Assembly (NCBI GenBank): GCA_023382455.1 | Contig: JAHDVX010000012.1 | Span: 44,519 to 108,518 of the forward strand | Length of the DNA: 64,000 bases | Origin: Flavobacteriales bacterium | Lineage (GTDB): Bacteria; Bacteroidota; Bacteroidia; Flavobacteriales_F; PHOS-HE28 | Direction: 5' to 3' | Shown: positions 1 to 20,344 of the stretch, piece after piece | How the letters are laid out: each line of letters starts with the position of its first letter | Position numbering within the stretch: position 1 is the first letter of the stretch | The notes under the pieces: model-generated | Told to the model about the DNA's origin: nothing | Seen by the model: only the letters and a program-made list of their open reading frames with translations | The model's database searches: none | Position numbers and translations under genes: made by a program

Positions 1-3000
1 CGTGGCGATGGTGACGCTACCGCTGAGGACCAGGCTCGCGTTGTTGGCGCAGATGGTCTGGTCAGGGCCGGCGTCCGCCGTGGGCGCATCCGTGAAGGTG
101 ATCGTCATCTGGTCGCTGGACGCTGCGCACGCGCCGTTGCCGGTGGTGGTGAGCGTGAGCGTTACGCTGCCAGCCGCGATCTCAGCCGCCGTGGGCGTAT
201 ACACCGCGTTGGGGCTGGTGTTATTGGGGTTGTAGGTGCCCGCGCCGCCGCTCCACAGGATGCCCGTGGCAATGGTGTAGGAACCGGCCAGGGTGGTGGC
301 CGCGTTGTTCTGGCTCACCGATTGGTCGGGGCCGGCATTGGCCATGGGCGCCGGAGTGAAGGTCAGGGTGACGTTGTCGCTCACCGCTGCGCAGTTGTTG
401 TTGCCGGTGGTGGTGGCGGTCAGCGTCACCGAGTTGTTGGCGATCTCGATGGCCGAGGGCGTGTAGGTGATGTTCTGGGCGGTGCTGCCCGGGCTGTACA
501 GGCCGGTGCCGCCGCTCCACTGCACGCCGGTGGCCACGGTGATGGCCGCGTTCAGCACCGCGTTGGCGTTGTTGCCGCAGAGCGATTGGTCCGCGCCTGC
601 GTTCACCGTCGGCGCCGGCGTGATGGTGAAGGTCACCTGGTCGCTCACGGCGTTGCACAGGCCGTTGCCCGCGCTGGTGAGGGTGAGCGTCACGGTGCCC
701 GCGGCGATCTCCGCCGCGGTGGGCGTGTAGGTGGCGTTCAAGGTGATGCTGTTGGGGCTGAAGCTGCCGCTGCCGCCGCTCCACACGCCGCCGGTGGCGC
801 CGTTCACGGAGCCGTTCAGGCTGATGGCTGCATTGTTGGCGCACACCGTGCCGTCAGTACCCGCGTTCACGATGGGTGCGGGCGTGTAGGTGATGATGCG
901 CGTGTCGGTGGCGGGCGTGCAGGTGCCGTTGCCCGTGGTGGTCAAGGTGAGGGCCACCATGCCTGCGGCGATGTCGGCCGCGCTGGGCGTGTAGGTGGCG
1001 TTGAGCGTGTTGGCGTTGGGCGTGAAGATCCCCGAACCGCCGCTCCAGGTGCCGCCGGTGGCGATCATCACGCTGCCGTTCAGGGCCACGGCCGCGTTGT
1101 TGGCGCATACGGTCACGTCAGGCCCGGCATTGGCCGAGGGCGCATCGGTGAAGGCGAGCACCACCTGGTCGCTGGCCGCGTTGCACAGGCCGTTGCCCGT
1201 GGTGGTGAGCGTGAGTGTCACGTTTCCATTGGCGATCTCCGCCGCCGTGGGCGTGTACACCGCGCTCATGTTGTTGGCACCGGGGTTGTAGGTGCCGTTG
1301 CCGCCGCTCCACACGCCGCCCGTGGCCACGGTGAAGGCACCCGACAAGGTGACGTCGGGGTTGTTGGCGCACAGCGAACGGTCGGGGCCCGCATTGGCCG
1401 TGGGCGCCGGGGTGATGGTGAAGGACACCTGGTCGCTCACGGCGGAGCAGTTCCCATTGCCCACCGTGGTCAGCGTCAGGGTGACGCTGCCGGCGGTGCG
1501 TTCGGCCGCGCTGGGCGTGTACACCGCGTTCAGCGTGCCGCTGTTGGGGCTGTACGTGCCGGTACCGCCGCTCCAGATGCCGCCCGTGGCGCCATTTACC
1601 GTACCGTTGAGGGTGATGGCGGAGTTGTTCGCGCATACCGTGCCGTTCAGGCCGGCGTCCACGGTGGGGGCGGGCGTGAAGTTGATCACTTTGGTATCCC
1701 ATACCGCGAGGCAATTGCCATTGCCGGTACTGGTAAGCGTAAGGGTCAAGGTGTTCGCCGCCAACTCCGCCGCCGTGGGCGTGTAGGTGGCGTTCAGCGT
1801 GGTGTTGTTCGGGCTGAAGGAACCCGCGCCGCCGCTCCACACACCTCCGGTGGCACCGGAAACGGCACCGTTCAGCGCCACATTGGCGTTGTTCACGCAC
1901 AAGGTCACGTCAGCGCCCGCGTTCACCACCGGGGCGGGGGTGAAGTGCAGGGTCATTTGATCGCTGACCGCGAGGCAGTTGTTGTTGCCCGTGGTGGAGA
2001 GCGTGAGGGTGAGGTTGCCGCTGGCGATCTCCGCCGCCGTGGGCGTGTAGGTGGCCGTGGGGCTGGTGGCGCCGGGGCTGAAGGTGCCCGCGCCGCCGGT
2101 CCACACCACGCCGCTGGCCAGCGTGAAGCTGCCGTTGAGCGTGGCCGTCGGATTGTTGGCGCAGATGTTCTGGTCGGCACCGGCATTCACGGTGGGCGCC
2201 GGGGTGATGGTCCAGGTGATCTGGTCGCTTACGGCATTGCACAGGCCGTTGTTGGTGCTGGTCAGGGTGAGGGTCACCACGCCTGCGGCCTGTTCAGCCG
2301 CCGTGGGTGTGTAGGTGGCGTTCAATGTGTTGGCGTCGGGGCTGAAGGTGCCCGCGCCGGTCCAGGTGCCGCCGCCCGCGCCGGTCACGCTGCCGTTCAA
2401 GGGGATCGCCGGCAGGTTGGCGCACACGGTGCCGTTCGGTCCGGCATCCACCACCGGTGCCGGGGTGAAGGTGATCGTCTTTTGGTCGGTCACGGCCAGG
2501 CAGTTGCCGTTGCCCGTGGTCGTCAAGGTCAAGGTGAGGATGCCCGCGTTGATCTCGGCCGGGGTGGGCGCGTAGGTGGCGTTCAGGGCCGTGTTGTTCG
2601 GCGTGTAGGAGCCCAGGCCGCCGCTCCAGATGCCGCCGGAGGCCACGGCCACGCTGCCGCCCAAGGCCACGCTGGCATTGTTGGCGCACACGGTTGCGTC
2701 CGCACCGGCATTGGCCGTCGGGGCGCTGGTGAAGGTCAGGGTGACCTGGTCGCTCACCGCCACGCAGTTGTTGTTGCCGGTGGTGGTCAGGGTGAGCGTC
2801 ACGCTGCCGTTGGCCACTTCACTGGCCGTGGGCGTGTAGGTGGCGTTCACATTGTTCGCATCGGGGCTGAAGCTGCCCGCACCACCGCTCCACACGGCAC
2901 CGGTGGCCACGGTGAACGATCCCGCCAAGGTGGCCACGGGATTGTTGGAGCACAGGCTTTGGTCGGGGCCTGCATTCACCGTGGGCGCCGGGGTGATGGT

Positions 3001-6000
3001 CCAGGTCACGGGGTCGCTCACGGCATTGCAGCTGCCGTTTCCGGCACTGGTCAGTGTAAGGGTCACGGTGCCCGCCGTGCGCTCCGCGGCCGTGGGCGTG
3101 TACACCGCATTCAGCGTGAAGTTGTTCGGGCTGTAAGTGCCCGCCCCGCCGCTCCACACGCCGCCGGTGGCGCCGCTGACGCTGCCGTTGAGGTTCATGG
3201 CGGGCGCATTGGCGCACACCGTGCCGTCCGTGCCGGCATTCACCACCGGGGCCGGGGTGAAGGTGATCACTTTGCTGTCGGCCACGGCATTGCAGTTGCC
3301 GTTGCCGGTGGTGGTGAGGGTGAGCGTCAAGGTGCCGCCCGCCAGCTCCGCCGGGGTGGGCGTGTAGGTGGCGTTCAGCGTGGTGTTGTTCGGGGTAAAG
3401 GAACCCAGGCCGCCGCTCCATACGCCGCCGGTGGCCACGGTCACGCTGCCGTTCAGCGCCACGTTGGCGTTGTTCACGCACACGCTGGCGTCCGTGCCGG
3501 CATTCACCGTGGGGGCGGGCGTGAAGTTCAAGGTCACCTGGTCGGTCACCGCCATGCAGTTGTTGTTGCCGGTGGTGGTGAGGGTGAGCGTCACGCTGCC
3601 GTTGGCGATCTCGGCAGCCGTGGGCGTGTAGGTGGCCGTGGGGCTGGTGGCGTTGGGGCTGAAGGTGCCCGCGCCGCCGCTCCACACCACGCCGGTGGCC
3701 AGCGTGAAGCTGCCGTTGAGCGTGGCCGCCGCATTGTTCGAGCAGATGTTCTGGTCCGCGCCCGCATTCACGGTGGGCGCCGGGGTGATGGTGTAGGTCA
3801 CCTGGTCGCTTACCGCGTTGCACAGGCCGTTGCCGGTGCTGGTGAGGGTGAGGGTCACCGTGCCGGCCGCGCGCTCGGCGGCGCTGGGGGTATAGGTGGC
3901 ATTCAGCGTGTTGGCGTTCGGGCTGTAGGTGCCGGTGCCGCCGCTCCAGGTGCCGCCGCTGGCGCCGGTCACGCTGCCGCCCAGGCTGATGCCGGGCATG
4001 TTGGCGCATACCGTGCCGTTGGTGCCGGCATCCACCACGGGGGCCGGGGTGAAGGAGATCGCCACTTGGTCGGTGACCGCGTTGCAGTTGCCGTTGCCCG
4101 TGGTGGTGAGGGTGAGCGTAAGGATGCCCGCATTGATCTCGGCAGGCGTCGGGGCGTAGGTGGCGTTCAGGGCCGTGTTGTTCGGGGTGTACGATCCCGC
4201 GCCGCCGCTCCACACGCCGCCGGTGGCGATGGCCACGCTTCCGTTCAGGGATACGTTCGCGTTGTTGGCGCAGCGCGTCATGTCCGCACCGGCATTGGCC
4301 GTGGGCGCTGCCGTGAAGTGCAGGGTTACCTGGTCGCTCACGGCGTTGCACAGGCCGTTGCCCGTGGTGGTGAGGGTGAGTGTGACGAAACCGGCCGCCA
4401 CCTCCGCCGCGGTGGGCGTGTAGGTGGCGTTCATGCTGGTGTTGCCGGGGCTGTAGCTGCCCGCGCCGCCGCTCCACACGCCGCCGGTGGCCACGGTGTA
4501 GCTGCCGGCCAGGGTGGCCACGGCGTTGTTGGAGCAAATGTTCTGGTCGGGTCCGGCGTTCACCGTGGGGGCAGGCGTGATGGTCCACGTCACTTGGTCG
4601 CTTACGGCGTTGCAGGTGCCGTTGCCCGCGCTGGTGAGCGTGAGGGTCGCGGTACCTGCGGTGATCTCGGCTGCCGTGGGCGTGTACACCGCGTTGAGCG
4701 TGGTGTTGTTCGGGCTGTAGGAGCCCGCGCCGCCGCTCCAGATGCCGCCGGTGGCGCCCGTGATGGTGCCATTGAGGTTCATGGCGGGGGCGTTGGCGCA
4801 AACGGAGGCGTCCGCACCGGCATTCACCACCGGTGCCGGGGTGAAGGTGATGGTGCGGCTGCTGGAGGCGGGCAGGCAGGTGCCGTTGCCCGTGGTGGTC
4901 AGGGTCAAGGTCACCTGGCCCGCGGCGATCTCACCGGCCGTGGGCGTGTAGGTGGCGTTCAGGGTGGTGTTGTTCGGGCTGTAAGTGCCCAGGCCGCCGC
5001 TCCAGGCGCCGCCGGTGGCCACGGTCACGCTGCCGTTCAGGGCGATGTCGGCGTTGTTGGCGCATACCGAGCTGTTGGCCCCGGCATTGGCCGTTGGCGC
5101 CGCCGTGAAGGTCAGCAGTACTTGGTCGCTCACGGCACTGCACAGGCCGTTGCCGGTGGTGGTGAGGGTGAGGGTGGCGCTACCGCTGGCGATCTCGGCC
5201 GCACTGGGCGTGTAGCTGGCGTTCATGTTGGTGGTGCTGGGGTCGAAGCTGCCCGCGCCGCCGCTCCACACGCCGCCGGTGGCCACGGTGAAGCTGCCGT
5301 TGAGGGTCACCTCGGCGTTGTTGCCGCATACGGTGCGGTCCAGGCCGGCATTCACCGTGGGGGCGGGCGTGATGGTCCAGGTCACCTGGTCGCTCACGGC
5401 GTTGCAGGTGCCGTTGCCGGCGCTGGTGAGCGTGAGGGTCACGGTGCCCGCGGCGATCTCGGCGGCCGTGGGCGTGTACACGGCATTCAAGGTGGCGTTG
5501 TTCGGGCTGTAGCTGCCCGCGCCGCCGCTCCAGATGCCGCCGGTGGCACCGGTGACGCTGCCGTTGAGGTTCATGGCGGGCGCGTTGGCACATACGGAGG
5601 CGTTCACGCCCGCATCCACGATGGGCGCCGGCGTGAAGGTGATGGTGCGGCTGCTGCTCACGGGCGTGCAGTTGCCGTTGCCCGTGGAGGTGAGGATCAG
5701 GGTGACGCTTCCTGCGGCGATCTCACCGGCGGTGGGCGTGTAGGTTGCCGTCAAGGAGGTATTGCCCGGGGTGAAGGTGCCCAAACCGCCGCTCCAAATA
5801 CCGCCCGTGGCGCCGGCCACGTTGCCGTTCAGTGCGATGGCCGCATTGTTGGCGCACACCGAGCTATTGGCCCCGGCGTTCACCGAGGGTGCCGCCGTGT
5901 AGGCGATCACCACTTGGTCCACCACGGCGGCGCAGTTGCCGTTGCCGGTGGTGGTCAAGGTCAAGGTCACCGACCCGTTGGCGATCTCCGCGGCCGTGGG

Positions 6001-7470
6001 CGTGTAGGTGGCGGCCATGTTGGTGGTGCTGGGGTCGAAACTGCCCGCGCCACCGCTCCACACGCCGCCCGTGGCGATGGTGAAGCTGCCGTTGAGGTTG
6101 GCCACGGCGTTATTGGCGCACAGCGTCTGGTTGGCACCGGCATTGGCGGTGGGGGCGGGGGTGATCGTGTAGGTCACCTGGTCGCTCTCGGGGTTGCAGG
6201 TGCCGTTTCCGGTGGTGGTCAGGGTCAAGGTCACGCTTCCTGCGGCGATCTCCGCCGCGCTGGGGGTGTAGGTGGCGGTGAGGCTGTTGGCGTTGGGGCT
6301 GTAGGTGCCCGTGCCGCCGCTCCAAGTGCCGCCGGTGGCGCCGGTCACGCTGCCGTTCAGGCTGATGGCCGCCGCATTGGCGCACACCGTTCCGTTGGTG
6401 CCGGCATCCACGATGGGCGCAGGCGTGAAGGTGATGGTGCGGCTGCTGGTGGCGGGCAGGCAGTTGCCGTTTCCGGTGGTGGTCAGGGTGAGCGTTACCG
6501 AGCCGTTGCTGATCTCTGATGCGCTTGGCGTGTAGGTGGCGTTCAGCGTGGTGTTATTGGGGTTGTAGGTGCCGGTTCCGCCGCTCCAGATGCCGCCGGT
6601 GGCCACGGTCACACTGCCATTGAGGGCAATGGTCGCGTTGTTGGCGCATACTGAGCTGTTAGCGCCGGCATTGGCCGTGGGGGCAGCGGTGAAGTTGAGT
6701 AGCACCTGGTCGCTCACCACCACACAGTTGCCGTTTCCGGTGGTGGTCAGCGTCAAGGTCACACTGCCGTTGGCGATCTCGGTGGCCGTGGGCGTGTAGG
6801 TGGCGTGGAGGTTGGTGGTGCTGGGGTCGAAGGTGCCCGCGCCGCCGCTCCAGATGCCGCCGGTGGCCACGGTGATGGTGCCGTTGAGCGAGGCCACGGG
6901 GTTATTGGCGCACAGCGTTTGGTCAGGTCCGGCATTCACCGTGGGGGCCGGGGTGAAGGTCACGAGCAGGCTGTCCTTCACCGCGCTGCATACGCCGTTG
7001 CCGGTGCTGGTGAGGTAGATCCACATGGAACCCGCCGCCAGCTCCGCCGCCGTGGGCGTGTAGGTGGCATTCAGGTTGGAGTTGGAGGGCAGGAAGGGAT
7101 TGGCACCGCCGGTCCACACGCCACCCACGGCATTCAGCACGCTGCCTGCCAAGTTCACCGTGGGTGCGCTGGTGCACACCTGCTGGTCCGGCCCGGCGTT
7201 GGTGATGGGCTTGGGCTGCAGCGTAAGGATCATCTCATCGAACTCCGGCGTGCAGGGCCCGGTGGAGGTGAGACGCAGGGTGACGCCGCCCAGGGCGATG
7301 TCGCCGATGCTGGGCTCATAAGTGGCGTTGAGGGCCGTGGCACTGGGCTGGAATACGCCGCTGCCCGTGGTGGTCCAAATGCCGGTGGTGCTTCCGCCGG
7401 AGACCGTTCCGGTGAGCGATGCGGATTCCCCCGCACACAGGGTCTGGTCGGTACCTGCGCTCACATCGAT
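1..7470 (-). repeat. Coding tandem-repeat array. Unit ~264 bp (231-297), three unit types (TVNAG / TANAG / IVDAG) forming a ~792-bp higher-order repeat, >=9 supercycles
   Basis: Plus-strand antisense mini-ORFs in the track recur at 264/792-bp spacing (467, 1259, 2051, 2840, 3632, 4424, 5216, ~6008, 6800). Translated units are ~75-85% identical within type. Confidence 0.85.
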
Positions 7471-8865
7471 CTTCCCGGAGAATTCCGAGAAGAAGCCGTA
7501 GCGGCAGCCCGATCCGGCCCCGCCGTTGATCACGCCCAGGGAGAACACGTCCGAGGTGTTGGTGATCACCAGGCCTTGGTTCACCGGAACTTCGGTGGTG
7601 TTGTATTGGATGTGTGCGGCCATCCATTCACCACCGGTGCCGGGTACGGTCACGAAGGCCGAACCGGGTATGGTGGCCGTGCCCGGACCGGTCACTACGA
7701 AGTCGTTCTCCGAGCCGCTTCGCACCAGCAGGTTCAGGAAGAAGCCCTCGTTGGTGGAGCGCGTGATTCCCACCTGCTGGCTGCCCGCGCAGTTCAGTGG
7801 TGGCAGGATGGCCATGCCCATCTCACAGCCGAAGCCGGTGACGTGTATGGCGTACACCGGCTTGGAAGCGCTCATGTAGGTGGCATTGTTCGTGGCGCCG
7901 CTCAGGTAGTCCATGTCGTGCCGGTAGTACTGGCCGGCAAAGAGCGTGGCCACCGGCGTGGGGTTCCCGTCGATGTAGATCTTGGTGTTGTTCTCAACGG
8001 CCATCAGGAACACGGATTCGTCACCCGTGGCATAGAGAGATCCTTTCACGGCGACATAGTCGGTACCCAGGATGTTCACCGGCACGATCTGGTCCATCAT
8101 CAGGTCGTAGCAGCCGCCGCTGGGGTTGTGGTCGCTGTCGTCCTTGATGGTGATGGCGATGGGCTTGTCCGCAAGCACGGCGGCACCCGAGGGGTGCTTG
8201 GTGGGGTCGGTGTAGGTGGCGTAGAGCGTGTTGGCACAGGAGTAGGTCTGGCCTCGGTTCAGGGTCACCACGAAGGGGACCAGGCCGGGATGGCCGTCCA
8301 CGTCCACCGGCGAATTGATGAGCACCGTGGTGTTGTCCTCCGTGGCCACGATGTCAAAGGAGGCGAAGGCCTTGTTCGCGTTGTTGCCGAAGTCGTGGTT
8401 GTGGAAGGGCGCGTGCTTGTGCAAGGGGATGTAGAACTCGGTGCCCAGGCCGTTGGCGCCTTTCAGGGCGACGATGTCCGGATTGTTCGTGTTGCTGCTC
8501 TCGTAGTAGCAGGTGATGTCCTCCGTGGAGGTGATGTGCAGGCCCGTGTTGCACACCGTGTTGGTCGGGCGGGTCTCCAACTGGGTCCGCAGGCTGGTCA
8601 TGTTATAGCGCACCGAGCTGTTGGCCGGCACGTTCAGCACGATGGGGCTTCCCCCGTTGAACCCCGGGTTCGCCGGCTGGGCAATGGTGACCACGGCCGC
8701 CGCGTTGCCCGCGGTCACGTTGAAGAAGATCGGTTCGTCGCCCGGGGTGTTGTGCAGACTGGTCACATCGGGGGGTGCCACCCAGAACTCGGTGCCGGTC
8801 TGGGCCAGCAACAGGTAGGGGAGGCATATGCTCAGAAGGACCTGGAGAAATCGCTTCTTGTTCAT
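1..8865 (-). CDS. Giant repetitive cell-surface protein (SprB / CHU-large-like adhesin), 5' end in window and C-terminus beyond window start. Signal peptide, ~470-aa N-terminal domain, then >=28 tandem ~88-aa Ig-like repeats
   Basis: Manual reverse-complement translation from the ATG at 8865-8863 (minus) is stop-free to position 1, ~2955 codons. N-terminus MNKKRFLQVLLSICLPYLLLAQ is a signal peptide. Repeats carry the motif PAPTVNAGPDQ.LCANN..LNGS.TVATGG.WSGG.G...P....LNATYTPTAAEIA.G.VTLTLTTTGNG.C. Not in the ORF track because there is no stop inside the window. The 2065-aa plus-strand ORF 322..6519 is its antisense artefact. Confidence 0.85.
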   Translation of the reverse strand, partial: MNKKRFLQVLLSICLPYLLLAQTGTEFWVAPPDVTSLHNTPGDEPIFFNVTAGNAAAVVTIAQPANPGFNGGSPIVLNVPANSSVRYNMTSLRTQLETRPTNTVCNTGLHITSTEDITCYYESSNTNNPDIVALKGANGLGTEFYIPLHKHAPFHNHDFGNNANKAFASFDIVATEDNTTVLINSPVDVDGHPGLVPFVVTLNRGQTYSCANTLYATYTDPTKHPSGAAVLADKPIAITIKDDSDHNPSGGCYDLMMDQIVPVNILGTDYVAVKGSLYATGDESVFLMAVENNTKIYIDGNPTPVATLFAGQYYRHDMDYLSGATNNATYMSASKPVYAIHVTGFGCEMGMAILPPLNCAGSQQVGITRSTNEGFFLNLLVRSGSENDFVVTGPGTATIPGSAFVTVPGTGGEWMAAHIQYNTTEVPVNQGLVITNTSDVFSLGVINGGAGSGCRYGFFSEFSGKIDVSAGTDQTLCAGESASLTGTVSGGSTTGIWTTTGSGVFQPSATALNATYEPSIGDIALGGVTLRLTSTGPCTPEFDEMILTLQPKPITNAGPDQQVCTSAPTVNLAGSVLNAVGGVWTGGANPFLPSNSNLNATYTPTAAELAAGSMWIYLTSTGNGVCSAVKDSLLVTFTPAPTVNAGPDQTLCANNPVASLNGTITVATGGIWSGGAGTFDPSTTNLHATYTPTATEIANGSVTLTLTTTGNGNCVVVSDQVLLNFTAAPTANAGANSSVCANNATIALNGSVTVATGGIWSGGTGTYNPNNTTLNATYTPSASEISNGSVTLTLTTTGNGNCLPATSSRTITFTPAPIVDAGTNGTVCANAAAISLNGSVTGATGGTWSGGTGTYSPNANSLTATYTPSAAEIAAGSVTLTLTTTGNGTCNPESDQVTYTITPAPTANAGANQTLCANNAVANLNGSFTIATGGVWSGGAGSFDPSTTNMAATYTPTAAEIANGSVTLTLTTTGNGNCAAVVDQVVIAYTAAPSVNAGANSSVCANNAAIALNGNVAGATGGIWSGGLGTFTPGNTSLTATYTPTAGEIAAGSVTLILTSTGNGNCTPVSSSRTITFTPAPIVDAGVNASVCANAPAMNLNGSVTGATGGIWSGGAGSYSPNNATLNAVYTPTAAEIAAGTVTLTLTSAGNGTCNAVSDQVTWTITPAPTVNAGLDRTVCGNNAEVTLNGSFTVATGGVWSGGAGSFDPSTTNMNASYTPSAAEIASGSATLTLTTTGNGLCSAVSDQVLLTFTAAPTANAGANSSVCANNADIALNGSVTVATGGAWSGGLGTYSPNNTTLNATYTPTAGEIAAGQVTLTLTTTGNGTCLPASSSRTITFTPAPVVNAGADASVCANAPAMNLNGTITGATGGIWSGGAGSYSPNNTTLNAVYTPTAAEITAGTATLTLTSAGNGTCNAVSDQVTWTITPAPTVNAGPDQNICSNNAVATLAGSYTVATGGVWSGGAGSYSPGNTSMNATYTPTAAEVAAGFVTLTLTTTGNGLCNAVSDQVTLHFTAAPTANAGADMTRCANNANVSLNGSVAIATGGVWSGGAGSYTPNNTALNATYAPTPAEINAGILTLTLTTTGNGNCNAVTDQVAISFTPAPVVDAGTNGTVCANMPGISLGGSVTGASGGTWSGGTGTYSPNANTLNATYTPSAAERAAGTVTLTLTSTGNGLCNAVSDQVTYTITPAPTVNAGADQNICSNNAAATLNGSFTLATGVVWSGGAGTFSPNATSPTATYTPTAAEIANGSVTLTLTTTGNNNCMAVTDQVTLNFTPAPTVNAGTDASVCVNNANVALNGSVTVATGGVWSGGLGSFTPNNTTLNATYTPTPAELAGGTLTLTLTTTGNGNCNAVADSKVITFTPAPVVNAGTDGTVCANAPAMNLNGSVSGATGGVWSGGAGTYSPNNFTLNAVYTPTAAERTAGTVTLTLTSAGNGSCNAVSDPVTWTITPAPTVNAGPDQSLCSNNPVATLAGSFTVATGAVWSGGAGSFSPDANNVNATYTPTASEVANGSVTLTLTTTGNNNCVAVSDQVTLTFTSAPTANAGADATVCANNASVALGGSVAVASGGIWSGGLGSYTPNNTALNATYAPTPAEINAGILTLTLTTTGNGNCLAVTDQKTITFTPAPVVDAGPNGTVCANLPAIPLNGSVTGAGGGTWTGAGTFSPDANTLNATYTPTAAEQAAGVVTLTLTSTNNGLCNAVSDQITWTITPAPTVNAGADQNICANNPTATLNGSFTLASGVVWTGGAGTFSPGATSPTATYTPTAAEIASGNLTLTLSTTGNNNCLAVSDQMTLHFTPAPVVNAGADVTLCVNNANVALNGAVSGATGGVWSGGAGSFSPNNTTLNATYTPTAAELAANTLTLTLTSTGNGNCLAVWDTKVINFTPAPTVDAGLNGTVCANNSAITLNGTVNGATGGIWSGGTGTYSPNSGTLNAVYTPSAAERTAGSVTLTLTTVGNGNCSAVSDQVSFTITPAPTANAGPDRSLCANNPDVTLSGAFTVATGGVWSGGNGTYNPGANNMSAVYTPTAAEIANGNVTLTLTTTGNGLCNAASDQVVLAFTDAPSANAGPDVTVCANNAAVALNGSVMIATGGTWSGGSGIFTPNANTLNATYTPSAADIAAGMVALTLTTTGNGTCTPATDTRIITYTPAPIVNAGTDGTVCANNAAISLNGSVNGATGGVWSGGSGSFSPNSITLNATYTPTAAEIAAGTVTLTLTSAGNGLCNAVSDQVTFTITPAPTVNAGADQSLCGNNANAVLNAAITVATGVQWSGGTGLYSPGSTAQNITYTPSAIEIANNSVTLTATTTGNNNCAAVSDNVTLTFTPAPMANAGPDQSVSQNNAATTLAGSYTIATGILWSGGAGTYNPNNTSPNAVYTPTAAEIAAGSVTLTLTTTGNGACAASSDQMTITFTDAPTADAGPDQTICANNASLVLSGSVTIAT

Positions 8866-9055
8866 CTGGGTTGGATGGCTCTCGGGGTATGGCCCTTCTT
8901 TACGGTGGAACACGTGGGTCGGGTTTCATTCGTCGAACATTTCGGCATGTTGGGCGAATTGCCGGTTCGGCGGTGTGCAGGGTGTCAACCCGCTCCGGCC
9001 CGGTCCCGATGGCGCACGGGTTCATGTACCTTTGATCTTCCCTCAACCCGCCGGT

Positions 9056-10345
9056 ATGCGCCTTTCATACGGACCCTGGCCCGGACTTGCCGTGGCGCTT
9101 GCCCTGCTGGGAGCCCCGGACCTCCTGGCCCAGGCAGGCAACCGGGATTGCGACCCCGCCGTGATCGACTCGGTGGCCTCCAACAGCCCCGTGTGCCCGG
9201 GTGATCCCATTCAGCTTTCGGTTGCCGCCCATGGCGACATCATCGGCTATTCCTGGTCCGGACCGGGAACCGGCGAGTTCTTCACGCTGGAACCCGAATG
9301 GGAATTCCCCAGCCAGGTCCTGGGGCAATACACGGTGGTGGTGTACGGCATCTGCGGGGGCGATACGGCATCCGTCCTCATCAACGCGGAGGGTGCCGGT
9401 GCGGGCCATGACAGTACCATCCACGTGTGCAGCACGGCCTGGGCCATGGACCTGGCCCCGTACCTGGGGCCGCATGCGGAAGGCGGTACCTGGGAGCACG
9501 ACGGTGAGCCGCACAGCGGCATCTACGATCCCGCCGTGGACAATCCCGGGGAGTTCGTGTACACCTCCCCGCATCCGGCCACCTGCCCCGGAAGCTCTCC
9601 CCGGGCCACCATCACCGTGGAGGAGATCGATCTGGGCCCGGATACCACCCTGGCCATCTGCCAGGAAGATGATGCCATCGACCTGGAGGACCTGCTGCCG
9701 CCTGGCACCTCGGATGATGGAAACTGGTACCGGCAGGTGTTCATTGCCCTGGAGCCGCATTCCGGGGTGTACGACCCGGCCGTGGATTCCTCGGGAACCT
9801 TCCGCTATACGCTGGGGGCCTGCTTCACCTTGGTCACGGTGGTCGAAAACCCGTACCTGCCGTGGTATGAGGATGAGGACCAGGACGGCTATGGCGACCC
9901 GGGGGAAGTGGAGTGGAGCTGCACCCCGCCTGAAGGCTATGTGGCAGACAGCTCCGACACCTGCACGGAACTGCCCGGACGGGCAGGTGATCCGTGCGAT
10001 GATGGCCTGGAAGCCACGGTGAACGACAGCATCACCCCGGATTGCACCTGCGCCGGGATGTTGCCCACCACACTGCCGGAGCCTGGATCCGATGCCGTGG
10101 ATGCGTCCATCTGGCCGAATCCGTTTGCCGGTGGGGAGCTGTTCCTGCGTACGACCATCCGTGGTGAACTGGACATCACCGTGCTCGATGCCGCGGGCCG
10201 CCAAGTGTTCACCCGTCGGTTCGCGGCCGTTGTCGGAGGGCGGCCGATCTCGATCCAGCCCGGCCCAGGGCTGTCCCCGGGCCCCTACTGGGTGCTTGTT
10301 ACCAGCGGTGACCGGACCTCCGCCTTGCCCCTGTTGGTGCTTTAG
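9056..10345 (+). CDS. Secreted protein with T9SS C-terminal sorting domain and an Ig-like module related to the giant protein repeats
   Basis: In-frame ATG at 9056 gives MRLSYGPWPGLAVALALLGAPDLLAQ signal. The tail ...IWPNPFAGGELFL...GPYWVLVTSGDRTSALPLLVL matches the Por/T9SS CTD pattern. Has a VCPGDPIQLSVAAHGDIIGYSWSGPG motif. TACCTTTG (TAnnTTTG-like -7 box) lies at 9027-9034. Confidence 0.7.
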   Translation: MRLSYGPWPGLAVALALLGAPDLLAQAGNRDCDPAVIDSVASNSPVCPGDPIQLSVAAHGDIIGYSWSGPGTGEFFTLEPEWEFPSQVLGQYTVVVYGICGGDTASVLINAEGAGAGHDSTIHVCSTAWAMDLAPYLGPHAEGGTWEHDGEPHSGIYDPAVDNPGEFVYTSPHPATCPGSSPRATITVEEIDLGPDTTLAICQEDDAIDLEDLLPPGTSDDGNWYRQVFIALEPHSGVYDPAVDSSGTFRYTLGACFTLVTVVENPYLPWYEDEDQDGYGDPGEVEWSCTPPEGYVADSSDTCTELPGRAGDPCDDGLEATVNDSITPDCTCAGMLPTTLPEPGSDAVDASIWPNPFAGGELFLRTTIRGELDITVLDAAGRQVFTRRFAAVVGGRPISIQPGPGLSPGPYWVLVTSGDRTSALPLLVL

Positions 10346-11076: not shown

Positions 11077-11209
11077 CCAGCCACGGGCCTCCCGCATTGG
11101 CCCCGCCACGCTGTTCAGCAGCTGGAGGGGACCACTTGGCGGCCTGCGTTGCAGGCCCCCGTGAGCGCCGGCCGCCTACCTTGGCCCGAGCCTTGTGCTT
11201 GTACGCCTC

Positions 11210-14200
11210 ATGCGCCGCCCGTTACTGCTCCTGTCCATCGCCTTGTTGCTGGGCCTGTGCAGCACGTTCGTCCGGGACCGGTCGCCGCAGGAACGCTTGG
11301 ACCGTGCGGCAGCGGTGCTGCAGGCGCGGGTCGATCAAGCCCATGCCGCACTGCGTTCAGATGCCGATGAGGTGCTGGCGCAGGACACCCTGGACATGGG
11401 CGGGACCCACGCCTCGGGCGAAGGCGGCATGCGCCTGTACCGCCATCACCGGGTGACCGCATGGACGGACCATGCCCCCATCGCGGATGCCGCACTGGAC
11501 ACCGTGCGAGGCGCACACTTGGACCTGGCGGATGGTACCTACCTCCATGCCTATGCCGAAGGGGATGGCCGAAGTGTCCATGCCTTGGCGCGGATCTGGT
11601 TCCAGCCGCCTTTCGAGAACCAGTACCTGCGTGCCCGGTTCGATCCCGGCTTCACGCTTCCCGAAGGCATCGCCGCCTCCAACGCGCCCGGGCTCGGCCC
11701 GGTGGTGCGCGATGGCGACGGCGAGGTTTTGCTCCGCCTCTTCTGGAAGGACGACATCGTGCTGCCGGGCACTGGCGCCCGCATGTCGCTCCTGCTTGGC
11801 TTGGTCGCGTTGGTGCTGGCCGTGGCGGCGCTTTGGAAATGGGCCGGGAGCCTACGCCCATGGGCAGGGTTACTCCTCTTCCTGGTAATCCTCTGGGGCC
11901 TCCGCTTGGCCACCCTGGCCCACGGCAGTTACGAGGCACTGGCTTCTTGGCCGCTCTTCGATCCCTCCCTGTTCGCGTCCTCCTTCTTCATGCCCTCCCT
12001 GGGCGATCTGCTCATCAATACGGCGGTGCTCCTCCTTACGGCGCTTTTCTTCCATGTCACGGTGAACCGCCTGAAGGCACCGGGCCGTGCCGTGCCGGTG
12101 GCCTTGGCATCACTGGCCCTGATCTGCGCCTTCGCTGACGTCATCGGCACCGTGATGATCGCCTTGGTGCACGACAGCAGCGTGAGCCTCGACCTCTTCC
12201 GCGTGCAGGATTTTGACGGCTACAGCGTGGCAGCGCTCCTGGCCATCGCCGGGCTGCTCTTCGCCTGGTGCGTGCTGGCCGATGCATTGGTCCGGTGGGT
12301 CGCTCCCCCGATGGCTGGCGGAAGGGCCTTGGCCTTGGCCGCCGGTGCCTGCGCCGCCTTGGCCTTGGTGAACCATTTTTCCGGACAATACGACCTGGTC
12401 CTTTCCCTTTGGCCGCTCCCCGTGCTGGCGTTGGTCCACCGGCTGCGGAAGCGCAGCGGCACCATCCCGGTGCTGCTGTTGGTGGCCGTGCTGGCGGTGT
12501 TCACGGCCCATGTGCTCAACCGGCAGTCCTTCAAGCGCATCGAGCTGGAGCGGGAGGCCTTGGCCGAGAACGCCACCACGCGGGAAGATCCCGTGATCGA
12601 GCTGCTGTTCGCCGAAGCCAAGCGCGAAATGGCCCGGGACCAACCGCTCCTAGCCTGGGCCGGCAGCGGTTCGCCTTGTACCTCCAGCGACCTGGACCGC
12701 ATGGTGCGCCAACCCTTCTTCACCGGCTATTGGGACCGGTACGACCTGCGCCTCTACCTCGTGTCCGGGCGGTCGTTCTGCTCCACCTCCCCGGACGGTG
12801 CCCCCTCGGCCCAAGCCATCATCGACCGCTACGAGCAGGGCGTGCCCACGGGTGAACCAACAGACCTGCGCATCACCGACCGGCCGGGGGAAGACGCCCT
12901 CTACATGGGGCGGGTGCACCTGGACAGCGCCCTGCTGTTCCTGGAACTTCGCCCTCGCCTGGTGGCCGACGGCCTCGGCTTTCCCGAACTCCTCCTGGCC
13001 GGCCCGCCCCCCTCGTCCATCAACCCGGGCCGCTACGCACAGGCACGCTACGAGCGCGGGTTGCTCACCGCCAGCTCAGGGCCGTACATCTTTCCCATCA
13101 CGTGGAGCCGGGCCGCCCCGGGTGAGGGCCTGCGATGGGTCCAGGACGGCTATGACCTGTTGGCCAAGGGCGACCCGCACGGCTCGTTGGTGGTGCTAGG
13201 CTCCAGGATCCCCGATCCGTGGGACCATGTGACCACCTTCTCCTACCTCTTCCTGTTCTACTGCCTGCTCGTCTTGGTCGTCGGCGGATGCCGGCTGCTG
13301 GTGCGCAGCGAGCGTGGGGCCGTGGTGGGCGTGGGAGGGAAGGTGCGCCTGGGTGTTGCCGGGTTCGCCGTGGCCAGCCTGCTGCTCTTCAGCCTGGGCA
13401 TGCGGCACACGGTGGATGCGCGCCAGGAGAACCGCAGCACGCGCATCATGGGCGAGCGTACGCGGGGTGTGTTGAACGAGCTGCGCCAAACGCTCCACGG
13501 CGAATCGGCACTCTCACCTTCCATGGCACCGTACCTGGACCACTTGCTGGGCAAACTCAGCAACGTGTTCTTCACCGACCTCACCCTCTACGCCCCGGAC
13601 GGTACGCTCTTCGCCACCTCCCGCGAGCAGGTGTTCAACACCGGCCTGCTCGGCAGGCGCATGGATCCCCGTGCCTTCCGGCACCTGGCCATGGAGGGCG
13701 CCTCCTTCTTCTTCCACGGTGAGCACATCGGCCAGGCGCGCTTCACCACCGCCTACATGCCCTTCCGCAACGACCAGGGCAAGGTGCTGGCCTACCTCGC
13801 CCTGCCCTATTTCGCGCGGCAGACGGAGGTGGAGCAGGAACGCGCGGCCGCCTATGTGGCCTTGGTCAACCTCTTCACCCTGCTCTTCCTGCTGAGCGTG
13901 GTGGCCGCAGCGTTGATCACCCACTGGACCACCCGCCCGCTGGAACTGCTGCGGCGCGGCCTGGAACGCATCGGCCTCGGGGCGCGCAACGAGCCCATCA
14001 ACTACCGCGGCAACGATGAACTGGGCCAGCTGGTGCGCGTGTACAACCGCAAGGTGGAGGAGCTGCGCGAAAGCGCCCTGAAGCTGGCCCGCAGCGAGCG
14101 CGAGAGCGCCTGGCGCGAAATGGCCAAGCAGGTGGCGCACGAGATCAAGAACCCGCTCACCCCGATGAAGCTCAACATCCAGCAGTTCCGCCGCACGTGG

Positions 14201-14800
14201 GACCCGGCCATGCCCGATGCCCGGGAGCGCCTGGACCGCTTCAGCGCCGGACTGGTGGAGCAGATCGACGTGCTGAGCCGCATTGCCGGCGAGTTCTCGC
14301 ACTTCGCGCAGGTGCCGCCCGCACAGCCCCGGCCCGTGGACCTCGCCGAGGTGGCGCGCACCGCCGTCCAGCTCTTCGCCGACACGCCGGGCCACACCGT
14401 GCACCTGCAAGGCGAAGGCCCGCTGCCCGTACTGGCCGACCGCGAGCACCTCCTGCGCGTGTTCAACAACCTGATCAAGAACGCGCTGCAAGCCGTCCCC
14501 GAAGAGCGGCAAGGGCGTGTGGACGTGGTATTGCGCCGCAGCGGCGGCGAGGCCGTGGCCGAAGTGCGGGACAACGGCACGGGCATCGCGCCGGAGGACC
14601 GCGACCGCATCTTCCAGCCCAGCTTCACCACCAAGACCAGCGGCATGGGCCTGGGCCTGGCCATGGTGAAACGCATGGTGGAGCAGGCCGGCGGCAGGGT
14701 GCATTTTGAAAGCACCACGGAACCGGGGCGCAGCGGTTCCGCCTTCTTTGTCACGCTTCCCCTGGACCACCCTCCGGTACATTTGCCCGGAACAGATTGA
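11210..14800 (+). CDS. Membrane sensor histidine kinase (~1196 aa) with polytopic N-terminal region, large extracytoplasmic domain, HAMP-like linker, HisKA and HATPase_c
   Basis: ATG at 11210 (track ORF starts at an upstream GTG). H-box HEIKNPLTPM; N/G-box NLIKNALQAV...DNGTGIAPEDRDRIFQPSFTTK..GMGLGLAMVKRMVE; many hydrophobic helices at the N-terminus. Confidence 0.85.
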   Translation: MRRPLLLLSIALLLGLCSTFVRDRSPQERLDRAAAVLQARVDQAHAALRSDADEVLAQDTLDMGGTHASGEGGMRLYRHHRVTAWTDHAPIADAALDTVRGAHLDLADGTYLHAYAEGDGRSVHALARIWFQPPFENQYLRARFDPGFTLPEGIAASNAPGLGPVVRDGDGEVLLRLFWKDDIVLPGTGARMSLLLGLVALVLAVAALWKWAGSLRPWAGLLLFLVILWGLRLATLAHGSYEALASWPLFDPSLFASSFFMPSLGDLLINTAVLLLTALFFHVTVNRLKAPGRAVPVALASLALICAFADVIGTVMIALVHDSSVSLDLFRVQDFDGYSVAALLAIAGLLFAWCVLADALVRWVAPPMAGGRALALAAGACAALALVNHFSGQYDLVLSLWPLPVLALVHRLRKRSGTIPVLLLVAVLAVFTAHVLNRQSFKRIELEREALAENATTREDPVIELLFAEAKREMARDQPLLAWAGSGSPCTSSDLDRMVRQPFFTGYWDRYDLRLYLVSGRSFCSTSPDGAPSAQAIIDRYEQGVPTGEPTDLRITDRPGEDALYMGRVHLDSALLFLELRPRLVADGLGFPELLLAGPPPSSINPGRYAQARYERGLLTASSGPYIFPITWSRAAPGEGLRWVQDGYDLLAKGDPHGSLVVLGSRIPDPWDHVTTFSYLFLFYCLLVLVVGGCRLLVRSERGAVVGVGGKVRLGVAGFAVASLLLFSLGMRHTVDARQENRSTRIMGERTRGVLNELRQTLHGESALSPSMAPYLDHLLGKLSNVFFTDLTLYAPDGTLFATSREQVFNTGLLGRRMDPRAFRHLAMEGASFFFHGEHIGQARFTTAYMPFRNDQGKVLAYLALPYFARQTEVEQERAAAYVALVNLFTLLFLLSVVAAALITHWTTRPLELLRRGLERIGLGARNEPINYRGNDELGQLVRVYNRKVEELRESALKLARSERESAWREMAKQVAHEIKNPLTPMKLNIQQFRRTWDPAMPDARERLDRFSAGLVEQIDVLSRIAGEFSHFAQVPPAQPRPVDLAEVARTAVQLFADTPGHTVHLQGEGPLPVLADREHLLRVFNNLIKNALQAVPEERQGRVDVVLRRSGGEAVAEVRDNGTGIAPEDRDRIFQPSFTTKTSGMGLGLAMVKRMVEQAGGRVHFESTTEPGRSGSAFFVTLPLDHPPVHLPGTD

Positions 14801-14814
14801 ACGAGCAAGTCCCC

Positions 14815-15594
14815 ATGGCCTACCAGAACATCCTGATCACCGATGCCGACGGCATCCGCACCATCACCATCAACCGCCCCGACCAGCTGAATGCGTTGAA
14901 CAGGGATACCATCAACGAACTTGACCAGGCGCTGACCGAGGCCGAGGCCGACAAAACCGTGCGCGTGCTCATCCTTACAGGCAGCGGCCCCAAGGCCTTC
15001 GTGGCGGGCGCGGACATCAAGGAATTCGCACATTTCAGCGTGGCCGATGGCAAAGCCCTCAGTGCCGACGGGCACCGCAAGCTCTTCGACCATGTGGAGC
15101 AGCTGAACAAACCGGTGATCGCCGCGGTGAACGGCTTCGCGCTGGGCGGTGGCCTGGAACTGGCCATGAGCTGCCACTTCCGCGTGGCCAGCGACAACGC
15201 GCGCATGGGCCTGCCGGAGACCAGCCTGGGCGTGATCCCCGGCTACGGCGGCACGCAGCGCCTGGCCCGCCTGGTGGGCAAGGGCAAGGCCATGGAAATG
15301 ATCTTCACCGCCGGCATGATCAAGGCGGACGAGGCCCTGCAATGGGGCTTGGTGAACCACGTTGTACCCCAGGACCAGCTGCTGGCCAGGTGCAACGAGC
15401 TGGCCGCCGCCATCCTGAAGAACTCACCCACCGCCCTGGCCGCCGCCATCCGTGCGGTGAATGCCGGCTTCGAGCCCGGTGCCGACGGCATGCAGCGCGA
15501 GATCGAGGAGTTCGGCAAATGCTTCGGCACCGCCGATTTCAAGGAGGGCACCACGGCCTTCATGGAGAAGCGCAAGGCGGTGTTCAAGGGGTAG
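14815..15594 (+). CDS. Enoyl-CoA hydratase/isomerase (crotonase family)
   Basis: PVIAAVNGFALGGGLELAMSCHFRVAS..GLPETSLGVIPGYGGTQRL crotonase signature. Confidence 0.9.
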   Translation: MAYQNILITDADGIRTITINRPDQLNALNRDTINELDQALTEAEADKTVRVLILTGSGPKAFVAGADIKEFAHFSVADGKALSADGHRKLFDHVEQLNKPVIAAVNGFALGGGLELAMSCHFRVASDNARMGLPETSLGVIPGYGGTQRLARLVGKGKAMEMIFTAGMIKADEALQWGLVNHVVPQDQLLARCNELAAAILKNSPTALAAAIRAVNAGFEPGADGMQREIEEFGKCFGTADFKEGTTAFMEKRKAVFKG

Positions 15595-19699: not shown

Positions 19700-20073
19700 A
19701 TAATGGGACCAGGGTCCCACTCTGGCGCGAGCGTCCTCCGCTCGTGCCTCTCGCCGGCTTGCCTCTACGTCTCATCGCATTCAAACCCCAGTTGCGAATT
19801 GGCACTGCTCCACATATAGGCCGTTTCATCGGTGACCAAGCCTGCGCGTAATGGATGCTCGCGAAGGTAGCGCCTCCGCTGCTCAAGCAGCTCCGTAGAA
19901 TGGCACGAGCGCCCTTTGCCCAATTGCTTCTACGCCTCATCGTATTCAAACCCCGGATGCGGAATGGCACTGCTCCACATATAGGCCGTTTCATCGGTGA
20001 CCAAGCCTGCGCGTAATGGATTCTCGCGAGGGTAGCGTCTCCGCTGCTCAAGCAGCTCCGTTGAATGGCACGT
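19700..20073. repeat. Non-coding element bounded by 14-bp terminal inverted repeats (CTGGCGCGAGCGTC / GACGCTCGCGCCAG) containing two ~160-bp tandem copies (~90% identical)
   Basis: Unit 1 ~19751-19902, unit 2 ~19914-20073. Each has an internal palindrome GCTGCTCAAGCAGC. The only ORF (19629..20051) is just a translation of the repeat. Confidence 0.7.
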
Positions 20074-20344
20074 GCGGAAGACGCTCGCGCCAGTTTTGGG
20101 GCGGACCCATGACCGATGTTATTGAACCACCGGATCCGGAAGTGAGCCCAAGGCTCGCCGACGCCCCCCGGCTATGCATCCGCGCCCTCGTTGCCTTGCG
20201 GTTCCGGCAAGTTCACCACCTTGCATTCGGGGTACATGCCGCCCGGTGCCCCATGAAGCATGGCTCGGTTGTCGTGCACGGCGCCGTGGATCCGGTACAC
20301 CGCGATGCGGCATGCGGGCATTGGCCGTACGCTCCTTGCCGCGA

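Follow-up and report, generated by a model that had tools for sequence, protein, structure and literature searches.

Which protein is encoded by the first 8.9 kb of a 64,000-nucleotide stretch of a Flavobacteriales bacterium genome (assembly GCA_023382455.1, contig JAHDVX010000012.1, positions 44,519 to 108,518 of the forward strand; the whole stretch is called the window below), for which the list of open reading frames (ORFs) offers nothing but plus-strand candidates? An original prediction had placed a giant adhesin gene on the minus strand of this region. Our analysis supports a giant gene on this strand, and we propose, with a probability of roughly 0.72, that its product is a cell-surface fibre which is exported as a type-B cargo of a type IX secretion system (T9SS), is statically anchored by a PorP/SprF-like protein and carries an IgGFc_binding head at its tip.

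The reading frame

Starting from the ATG at position 8865 the minus strand can be translated to base 1 over 2,955 codons without a single stop codon, just as predicted, and the frame is still open at the window edge. The chance of such a stop-free frame, computed from the base composition, is about 4e-26. The GC content at the first, second and third codon positions (GC1, GC2, GC3) is 0.52, 0.60 and 0.90, and the credible neighbour genes have a GC3 of 0.86-0.92. Together with the orthologs found in 52 loci (see below) this identifies positions 1..8865 (minus strand) as the 5′ part of a giant gene, the proposed surface-fibre gene. The visible part of the protein is acidic (133 D+E, 37 K+R) and rich in T, A, G, N and S.

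The gene is missing from the ORF list since the program drops ORFs which cross the window edge, and therefore only antisense ORFs are shown. The ORF at 322..6519 (plus strand, 2,065 aa) has a GC1 of 0.92 and a GC3 of 0.51, which is the mirror image of the credible genes, and its product is of low complexity and rich in G, A, R, V and H. It is an antisense artefact and not a gene, and the periodic plus-strand ORFs of 76-98 aa are likewise antisense shadows of the giant gene, so that the original prediction was right on both points. Two small plus-strand ORFs, 1292-1786 and 7526-7879, show a high GC3; we take them as artefacts because their antisense frame shares the third positions with the real gene.

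The ATG at 8865 (minus strand) and the next ATG at 9056 (plus strand) are separated by a divergent intergenic region of 190 bp (8866..9055), the presumed promoter site. A scan of the region upstream of the giant gene for sigma-70-type promoters and terminators, which does not cover Bacteroidota promoters, gave no match.

The signal peptide and the N-terminal head

The N-terminus of the protein, MNKKRFLQVLLSICLPYLLLAQ, resembles a Sec signal peptide and is followed by TEFWVAPPDV. The signal peptide that had been predicted could be read off the protein sequence at aa 1-21 (MNKKRFLQVLLSICLPYLLLA, then Q; 8803..8865, minus strand). It is a helix of low pLDDT (the per-residue confidence score) in the AlphaFold2 model, and the N-terminus is conserved in the A3 consensus of the homologs.

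The head which follows (aa 22-460; 7486..8802, minus strand) is all-beta. When the N-terminal 480 aa were scanned alone, aa 138-420 matched Pfam PF17517 (IgGFc_binding) with an E-value of 4.8e-37 and 128.3 bits (gathering cutoff 25.6), confirming the family that had been proposed for the domain beginning at TEFWVAPPDV. The AlphaFold2 model of the head reached a pLDDT of 91 and a predicted template-modelling score (pTM) of 0.88. The scan of the whole 2,955-aa protein against Pfam and NCBIfam, however, returned no family at all. This null result is an artefact of scanning a whole repetitive protein, and the difference between 128 bits for the head alone and nothing for the complete sequence means that whole scans of giant repetitive proteins can hide strong domains. 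Matches hidden in this way probably contribute to annotations as 'hypothetical protein'.

The repeat array

A hidden Markov model (HMM) derived from the units themselves resolves the sequence from aa 461 to the window edge into 29 contiguous copies of 88 aa, where at least 28 immunoglobulin (Ig)-like repeats had been expected: unit 0 is degenerate, 27 units are full (one of them with 87 aa) and unit 28 is partial. With Tandem Repeats Finder 26.7 copies of a 264-bp period were detected between positions 38 and 7084. The DNA autocorrelation has its maximum at 792 nt (68.3% identity, with 65.6% at 264 nt and 64.7% at 528 nt over a background of about 40%), so that both of the predicted periods were recovered. 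The anchor W[ST]G recurs at a spacing of 88 aa 25 times and of 87 aa once. The consensus of the unit reads PAPTVNAGxDxxVCANNAxxxLNGSVTxATGGxWSGGAGxYSPNxTxLNATYTPTAAEIAAGxVTLTLTTTGNGxCxAVSDQVTxTFT; the cysteines at its positions 14 and 76 are near-invariant.

All units are encoded on the minus strand. The degenerate unit 0 (aa 461-550) lies at 7216..7485 and unit 1 (aa 551-638), which is an outlier in the clustering, at 6952..7215. Hierarchical clustering of either the protein or the DNA sequences then shows an exact alternation of three types over units 2-25 (619..6951), corresponding to eight triplets of 792 bp. Units 26-27 (91..618) break the alternation and form the start of a conserved non-triplet distal array; in unit 27 Cys14 is replaced by Ser. 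Of unit 28 the first 30 aa are matched by the HMM (1..90) before the window edge cuts it. Units three positions apart share on average 71.5% of their amino acids and 74.5% of their nucleotides, as compared with 60% and 68% at the other lags, and units of the same type average 72% amino acid identity versus 61% for units of different types. Thus the three ordered types and the regular register of the original prediction hold for units 2-25, but the super-repeat is near-perfect in register only and not in sequence.

The most similar pair of units is 88% identical at the nucleotide level and the longest exact repeat within the array measures 44 bp. With no exact repeat above this length a collapse of the array in this assembly is unlikely, contrary to what had been suspected for such genes. 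Fragmentation, on the other hand, is common elsewhere: the contig ends within the array in at least 21 of the 52 related loci.

Fold and family of the unit

An AlphaFold2 model of three consecutive units had a pLDDT of 94.9 and a pTM of 0.68, the latter leaving the geometry between the domains uncertain, and its fold matches Ig, cadherin and PKD domains. The units are thus modelled as Ig/PKD-like sandwiches, in agreement with the predicted Ig-like nature of the repeats. The best fold match in the PDB is the base of GhpA (9fly_A, E-value 2.2e-10, 21% identity), and cadherin and titin arrays score nearly as high. GhpA is a T9SS substrate of 5,898 aa from another member of the Bacteroidota, Aureispira sp. 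CCB-QB1, and is reported to contain an inter-domain bond between Cys2988 and Cys3140 (bioRxiv 10.1101/2024.01.29.577165).

At the sequence level no Pfam or NCBIfam model matches the units at threshold. No Pfam family, the SprB repeat (PF13573) included, matches the repeats even at E-values up to 10, and the PKD models PF00801, PF18911 and PF22352 stay below the Pfam thresholds; the nearest model is K319L-like_PKD, which scores 20 bits on an ortholog and would need 27. The Pfam comparison foreseen in the original prediction therefore succeeded for the head and failed for the repeats. A profile built from the 27 units nevertheless finds 5,201 representatives of protein clusters at E ≤ 1e-3, and with the stricter limit of E ≤ 1e-30 there are 1,282. 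The longest of these proteins has 7,183 aa, and the unit occurs in as many as 66 copies. Among the top 150 representatives 111 have a CHU_C-like C-terminus and 13 of them also begin with an IgGFc_binding head. Such relatives are annotated in their source as 'gliding motility-associated C-terminal domain-containing protein'.

Searches of the PDB sequences with the profile of the repeat, with the sequence of three units and with the head gave a single match, which was compositionally biased. It links the three units at 5368-6159 (minus strand) to 9ncf_S (E-value 1.2e-4, bias above the score), a 460-aa 'Immunoglobulin-like domain protein' with repeats of the ATGATGYQWKK type, which may be distantly related to the unit.

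Orthologs, the C-terminus and the partner gene

The closest database proteins are 81-87% identical, partial and derived from metagenome-assembled genomes (MAGs) of Flavobacteriales. A scan of species-representative genomes yielded 52 loci, all from Flavobacteriales/Bacteroidota MAGs and many of them from activated sludge, with head identities of 66-92%. The ortholog genes carry 38-45 or more units, and in about 25 loci the gene exceeds 4,050 aa and extends beyond the 10-kb flank. The gene of locus L046 is complete at 4,068 aa and consists of the head, 38 units, two PKD_4 domains and a CHU_C/TIGR04131 domain; its C-terminus matches PF13585 with 1.5e-16 and TIGR04131 with 1.4e-10 (41.1 bits, cutoff 35). 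With this C-terminus as query a metagenome scan found five further loci, L053-L057. In L057 the gene encodes 42 units followed by PKD and CHU_C (PF13585, 1.6e-14).

The arrays are colinear. Window units 22-27 correspond to units 7-12 of L046, units 26-27 thus being equivalent to its units 11-12, and to about units 11-16 of L057, and units 10-41 of L057 correspond to units 6-37 of L046. From this colinearity about 25 more units and a tail of about 255 aa are predicted beyond the window. The complete protein would then have about 5,390 aa and its gene about 16.2 kb, of which about 7.3 kb would lie beyond base 1 and the front 55% within the window. The missing part, as judged from the orthologs, should comprise the 25 or so units, a pair of PKD domains and a type-B sorting domain for the T9SS. 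The expectation that the protein exceeds 3000 aa is thus borne out by orthologs of more than 4,000 aa. Likewise the proposed TIGR04131-type sorting domain was found in the orthologs (TIGR04131/PF13585), while the C-terminus of this copy falls outside the window.

In all six orthologous loci with a 3′ flank a gene of the PorP/SprF family of about 330 codons follows directly downstream of the giant gene (L057, L053, L054 and L055; partial in L056 and L046). Two of the encoded proteins match TIGR03519 with 7.6e-45 and 6.1e-42 (153.6 and 144.1 bits, cutoff 90.55). A tblastn search for a PorP/SprF gene gave no match in the window, which ends before the region 3′ of the giant gene. The gene after the PorP-like gene is an ORF on the opposite strand without a family match in L057 and atpG in L053.

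The partner proteins of the orthologs end in ...HSGRQRRTTSSAF, ...SGRDRRATSSAF or ...SGRARRMTSSAF, that is in the form SGRxRRxTSSAF, and their C-terminal tails contain neither a Cys-X-Cys motif nor any other cysteine. On account of these cysteine-free tails we prefer a fibre with a static anchor to an adhesin that serves in gliding.

In more distant type-B cargo systems the PorP/SprF-like partners have a single cysteine near the C-terminus (...ACPRL, ...LCPRF, ...ICPEF); their genes are located at 1417-2343 of L058, 9445-10359 of L060 and 4403-5368 of L063. The single-cysteine and the cysteine-free ...TSSAF tails may mark different modes of T9SS/gliding-track coupling.

Covariation of the cysteines

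We compared the units which have lost one of the two near-invariant cysteines. Among 40 window and ortholog proteins the loss of Cys14 in unit i was accompanied by the loss of Cys76 in unit i+1 in 24 out of 24 cases, all of which go back to one ancestral event at the position of window unit 27 (PDQSVSQNNA), and by the loss of Cys76 in the same or the previous unit in none of 25. In a set of 147 diverse representatives the next unit shared the loss in 10 of 30 cases, as compared with a background of 14 in 3,565 (Fisher p = 5.6e-16), and the same unit in 0 of 41. About ten of the paired losses in the diverse set are independent. Topological reasoning also disfavours a bond within one domain since in an Ig-type sandwich position 14, at the end of strand A′, and position 76, in the F–G loop, lie at opposite ends of the domain. 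The covariation points to a disulfide which probably connects Cys14 of unit i with Cys76 of unit i+1; such a bond would span 150 residues.

Evolution of the array

For the comparison of the window array with those of its relatives the strings of units were aligned by dynamic programming. Nearly every window unit has a positional ortholog of 74-92% identity. The internal gaps relative to close relatives comprise three or six units (+3/−3 in L013, L012 and L016; 6/3 in L007; 3 + 3 plus one noisy 1/1 pair in L004), and the distal conserved block is offset relative to L046 by +15, +18 or +21 units. Repeat-number variation, one of the two processes invoked in the original prediction, is thus seen between species, and the gap sizes support the triplet of units 2-25 as the quantum of gain and loss, which would presumably proceed through in-register unequal recombination.

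The second process, concerted evolution, could not be substantiated. In the central zone the positional orthologs in L013 are 86-92% identical and the best paralogs within the gene 79-85%. As positional orthologs often surpass the best paralog, there is no sign of strong ongoing homogenization, and we reject strong concerted evolution for this array.

Proposed explanation and alternatives

We propose the following mode of action. The protein would be exported to the periplasm by the Sec system and moved across the outer membrane by the T9SS via its C-terminal type-B sorting domain. A cognate PorP/SprF-like outer-membrane protein, encoded directly downstream, would then retain the fibre on the surface. 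It is known that cargo with a type-B C-terminal domain is exported by the T9SS and held on the surface by a cognate PorP-like protein (PMC9143113; PMC12618676). That the host uses a T9SS is indicated by the type-A C-terminal domain of a neighbouring CotH protein which passes the TIGR04183 cutoff; the window itself contains no core T9SS genes. The stalk is predicted to be rod-shaped and to consist of some 53 Ig/PKD-like domains of 88 aa in tandem, with consecutive units probably stapled by disulfides between Cys14(i) and Cys76(i+1). In an extended state the whole protein of about 5,390 aa would measure about 0.2 µm. The proximal stalk would be built from the three-domain super-repeat, and the triplet would be the step by which the stalk length changes between species. 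At the tip of the rod the 440-aa head of the IgGFc_binding family would be displayed. We suggest that it is the most likely binding (adhesive) module since it is farthest from the anchor, as are the binding modules in GhpA and other fibrillar adhesins. The reading frame, the family of the head, the modelled fold of the repeats, the triplet organization and the architecture and gene pairing of the orthologs are firm. We infer the C-terminus and the partner gene of this copy, the disulfide staple, the anchoring without coupling to a gliding track and, from the architecture, the role as an adhesin.

Several points weigh against this proposal. For this copy both the sorting domain and the PorP-like gene would be located beyond base 1 of the window, the pTM of the three-unit model leaves the inter-domain geometry uncertain, and the cysteine losses of the orthologs trace back to a single event. 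The protein contains only one Bacteroidota O-glycosylation motif (D[ST][AILVMT]), whereas the stem of GhpA is heavily glycosylated. Neither a solved structure close to the head nor relevant literature on a ligand or binding activity of bacterial IgGFc_binding domains was found.

A more far-reaching version, which we regard as unlikely, would make the protein of this conserved family from uncultured activated-sludge Flavobacteriales a rigid appendage of about 0.2 µm, possibly multi-stranded and GhpA-like, with the domains chained by disulfides, a titin-like supramolecular register encoded by the three-domain super-repeat, a length set in three-domain quanta and the head serving as a new kind of capture module. 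Unlikely, too, is the specific idea of a multimeric 'grappling hook' of the GhpA kind, in which several protomers would be packed laterally to form a stem that is hollow and rigid, the triplet would set the lateral register and the heads would form the distal catching device. The base of GhpA is the best fold match, the two proteins are similar in size (a predicted 5,400 or so and 5,898 aa) and domain pitch (about 86-88 aa), the proposed disulfide spans 150 residues as compared with 152 between Cys2988 and Cys3140 of GhpA, and a PorP homolog is found downstream of GhpA and of the orthologs. However, no sequence homology to any GhpA fragment was detected among the PDB sequences, cadherin and titin arrays score nearly as high in the fold comparison, and the head is a 440-aa IgGFc_binding domain instead of a hook module of about 1,400 aa. 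Furthermore, an equivalent of the PorE/OmpA-like ghpC does not follow the PorP gene in L057 or L053, O-glycosylation motifs are almost absent and no type VI secretion genes are among the window genes scanned. Given the lack of sequence homology, the different head and the missing PorE-like gene we reject membership in the GhpA group.

Similarly improbable is a mobile gliding adhesin of the SprB type, whose SprF-like carrier would be disulfide-coupled to the GldK track and would move along the cell. SprF couples SprB to the moving GldK track via a Cys-X-Cys tail, which is needed for sustained track movement (PMC12635249). The general plan is shared, that of a giant Ig-repeat type-B cargo which in the orthologs is directly followed by a PorP/SprF-family gene, and the gliding motility annotation of the relatives would fit. 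Yet PF13573 matches no part of the protein, the partners of the orthologs end in ...SGRxRRxTSSAF and not in the Cys-X-Cys of SprF, and upstream of the giant gene there is a divergent gene for a secreted protein, a small ORF and a histidine kinase gene instead of an sprC- or sprD-like gene. Orthology to SprB is therefore rejected: SprB repeats, the sprC-sprD-sprB-sprF context and, as tested in the orthologs, a twin-cysteine carrier are all missing.

It is very improbable that the array arose during assembly or represents a pseudogene in decay and that the giant ORF is biologically meaningless. The window edge truncates the gene, break points inside the array occur in many related contigs and some long-read orthologs carry premature stop codons, but the 2,955 stop-free codons have a gene-like GC3, the unit length is constant with one codon indel over 27 units, no exact repeat exceeds 44 bp and the units are colinear one by one with independently assembled orthologs, including those of long-read MAGs. 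The premature stops are found in L005, L020 and L022 at 798, 638 and 3,614 aa, respectively; L022 and L005 are on long contigs. They may be due to frameshift errors of sequencing or to true pseudogenisation. There is next to no chance that the plus-strand ORF 322-6519 is the real gene, since apart from its length its codon-position GC values mirror those of every credible window gene, its composition is of low complexity and the coding on the opposite strand is backed by Pfam and by orthologs.

Genomic neighbourhood

The fibre gene which we propose is adjoined by a divergent gene at 9056-10345 (plus strand) for a secreted Cys-rich protein of 429 aa, which has no Pfam family and whose C-terminus reaches 22.1 bits with TIGR04183 (cutoff 23); homologs with 47-58% identity are found at this place in the closest relatives (L003-L014) only. 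Then follow, both on the plus strand, the genes for a HAMP/HisKA/HATPase sensor kinase of 1,201 aa (11195-14800) and an enoyl-CoA hydratase (14797-15594). This histidine kinase and enoyl-CoA hydratase pair upstream of the giant gene is syntenic in most of the 52 related loci; the kinase may regulate the fibre gene, or the gene order may simply be conserved. On the minus strand a CotH kinase and lamin-tail-domain protein of 783 aa is encoded at 17241-19592; as its C-terminus scores 27.9 bits with TIGR04183 (cutoff 23) and passes the type-A T9SS cutoff, it would be a secreted CotH. A beta-propeller protein of 784 aa (22664-25018, minus strand) stays below this cutoff with 20.5 bits. Between the CotH and the TIG-domain genes there is an intergenic tandem duplication (19759-20076; 165 bp in 1.9 copies, 92% identity).

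Otherwise the window is ordinary chromosome: besides the histidine kinase, enoyl-CoA hydratase and CotH genes it contains genes for a polysaccharide-synthesis protein, an NYN nuclease, YceI, ExbB, a TPR protein, an aldehyde dehydrogenase, UvrC, a beta-lactamase-fold protein and glycosyltransferases. Neither tRNA genes nor Rfam families were detected when the window was scanned for them.

Implications

Bacteroidota touch surfaces, prey and each other mainly by means of giant repetitive cargo proteins of the T9SS, for example SprB and GhpA, and most of these proteins are invisible in metagenomes because the assemblies break inside the genes and the domain scanners return nothing. The locus described here supplies an 88-aa Ig/PKD-like family which is present in more than 5,000 protein clusters and lacks a Pfam or NCBIfam model, a sequence-only argument for the stapling of domains by disulfides and a clean example of three-domain steps in stalk length between species. 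The conserved two-gene module of a fibre and a cysteine-less PorP-like anchor belongs to a lineage often met with among wastewater MAGs, which may bear on floc formation. None of these findings overturns current understanding.

Comparison with known systems

The proposed fibre resembles T9SS type-B cargo with PorP/SprF-like anchors, such as PG1035-PorP of P. gingivalis and the F. johnsoniae substrates, in its signal peptide; in addition the orthologs share the TIGR04131/PF13585 C-terminus and the adjacent downstream PorP/SprF-family gene, and the host has T9SS cargo. It differs in being far larger than most of these proteins and in its passenger, an array of unmodelled 88-aa Ig/PKD-like units with an IgGFc_binding head.

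With GhpA it has in common the predicted nature of a giant T9SS substrate, a stem in which some 50 Ig-like domains, each of about 86-88 aa, would follow one another, the fold of these domains, the PorP homolog which in the orthologs is encoded downstream and the inter-domain disulfides of about 150 residues, which are observed in GhpA and proposed for the fibre. In contrast to GhpA, whose stem is heptameric and rigid, the fibre has no detectable sequence homology, another N-terminal module, in L057 and L053 no PorE-like third gene and scarce O-glycosylation motifs. SprB of Flavobacterium johnsoniae, with its carrier SprF, is a giant repetitive type-B cargo paired with a PorP/SprF-family protein, as is predicted for the fibre; the latter differs by lacking a Pfam match to the SprB repeat and the sprCD context, and the carrier of the orthologs by lacking the twin-cysteine tail for coupling to GldK.

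The same overall plan of IgGFc_binding head, a few units, PKD and CHU_C is found in proteins of about 1,240 aa (IgGFc-binding/PKD/gliding-C-terminal) from Crocinitomicaceae and other Flavobacteriales, whose heads are 39-45% identical over the query; these have about 4-5 units compared with the predicted 53 and show no triplet expansion. Titin, which is among the fold matches, also arranges Ig-like domains of fixed types in a higher-order repeat, although its sequence and biology are unrelated and the likeness is an analogy only. Taken together, the gene can be placed in the known class of giant type-B cargo of the T9SS and adds to it an unmodelled 88-aa domain family, a triplet super-repeat with indels of three units and a chain of probable disulfides between the domains.

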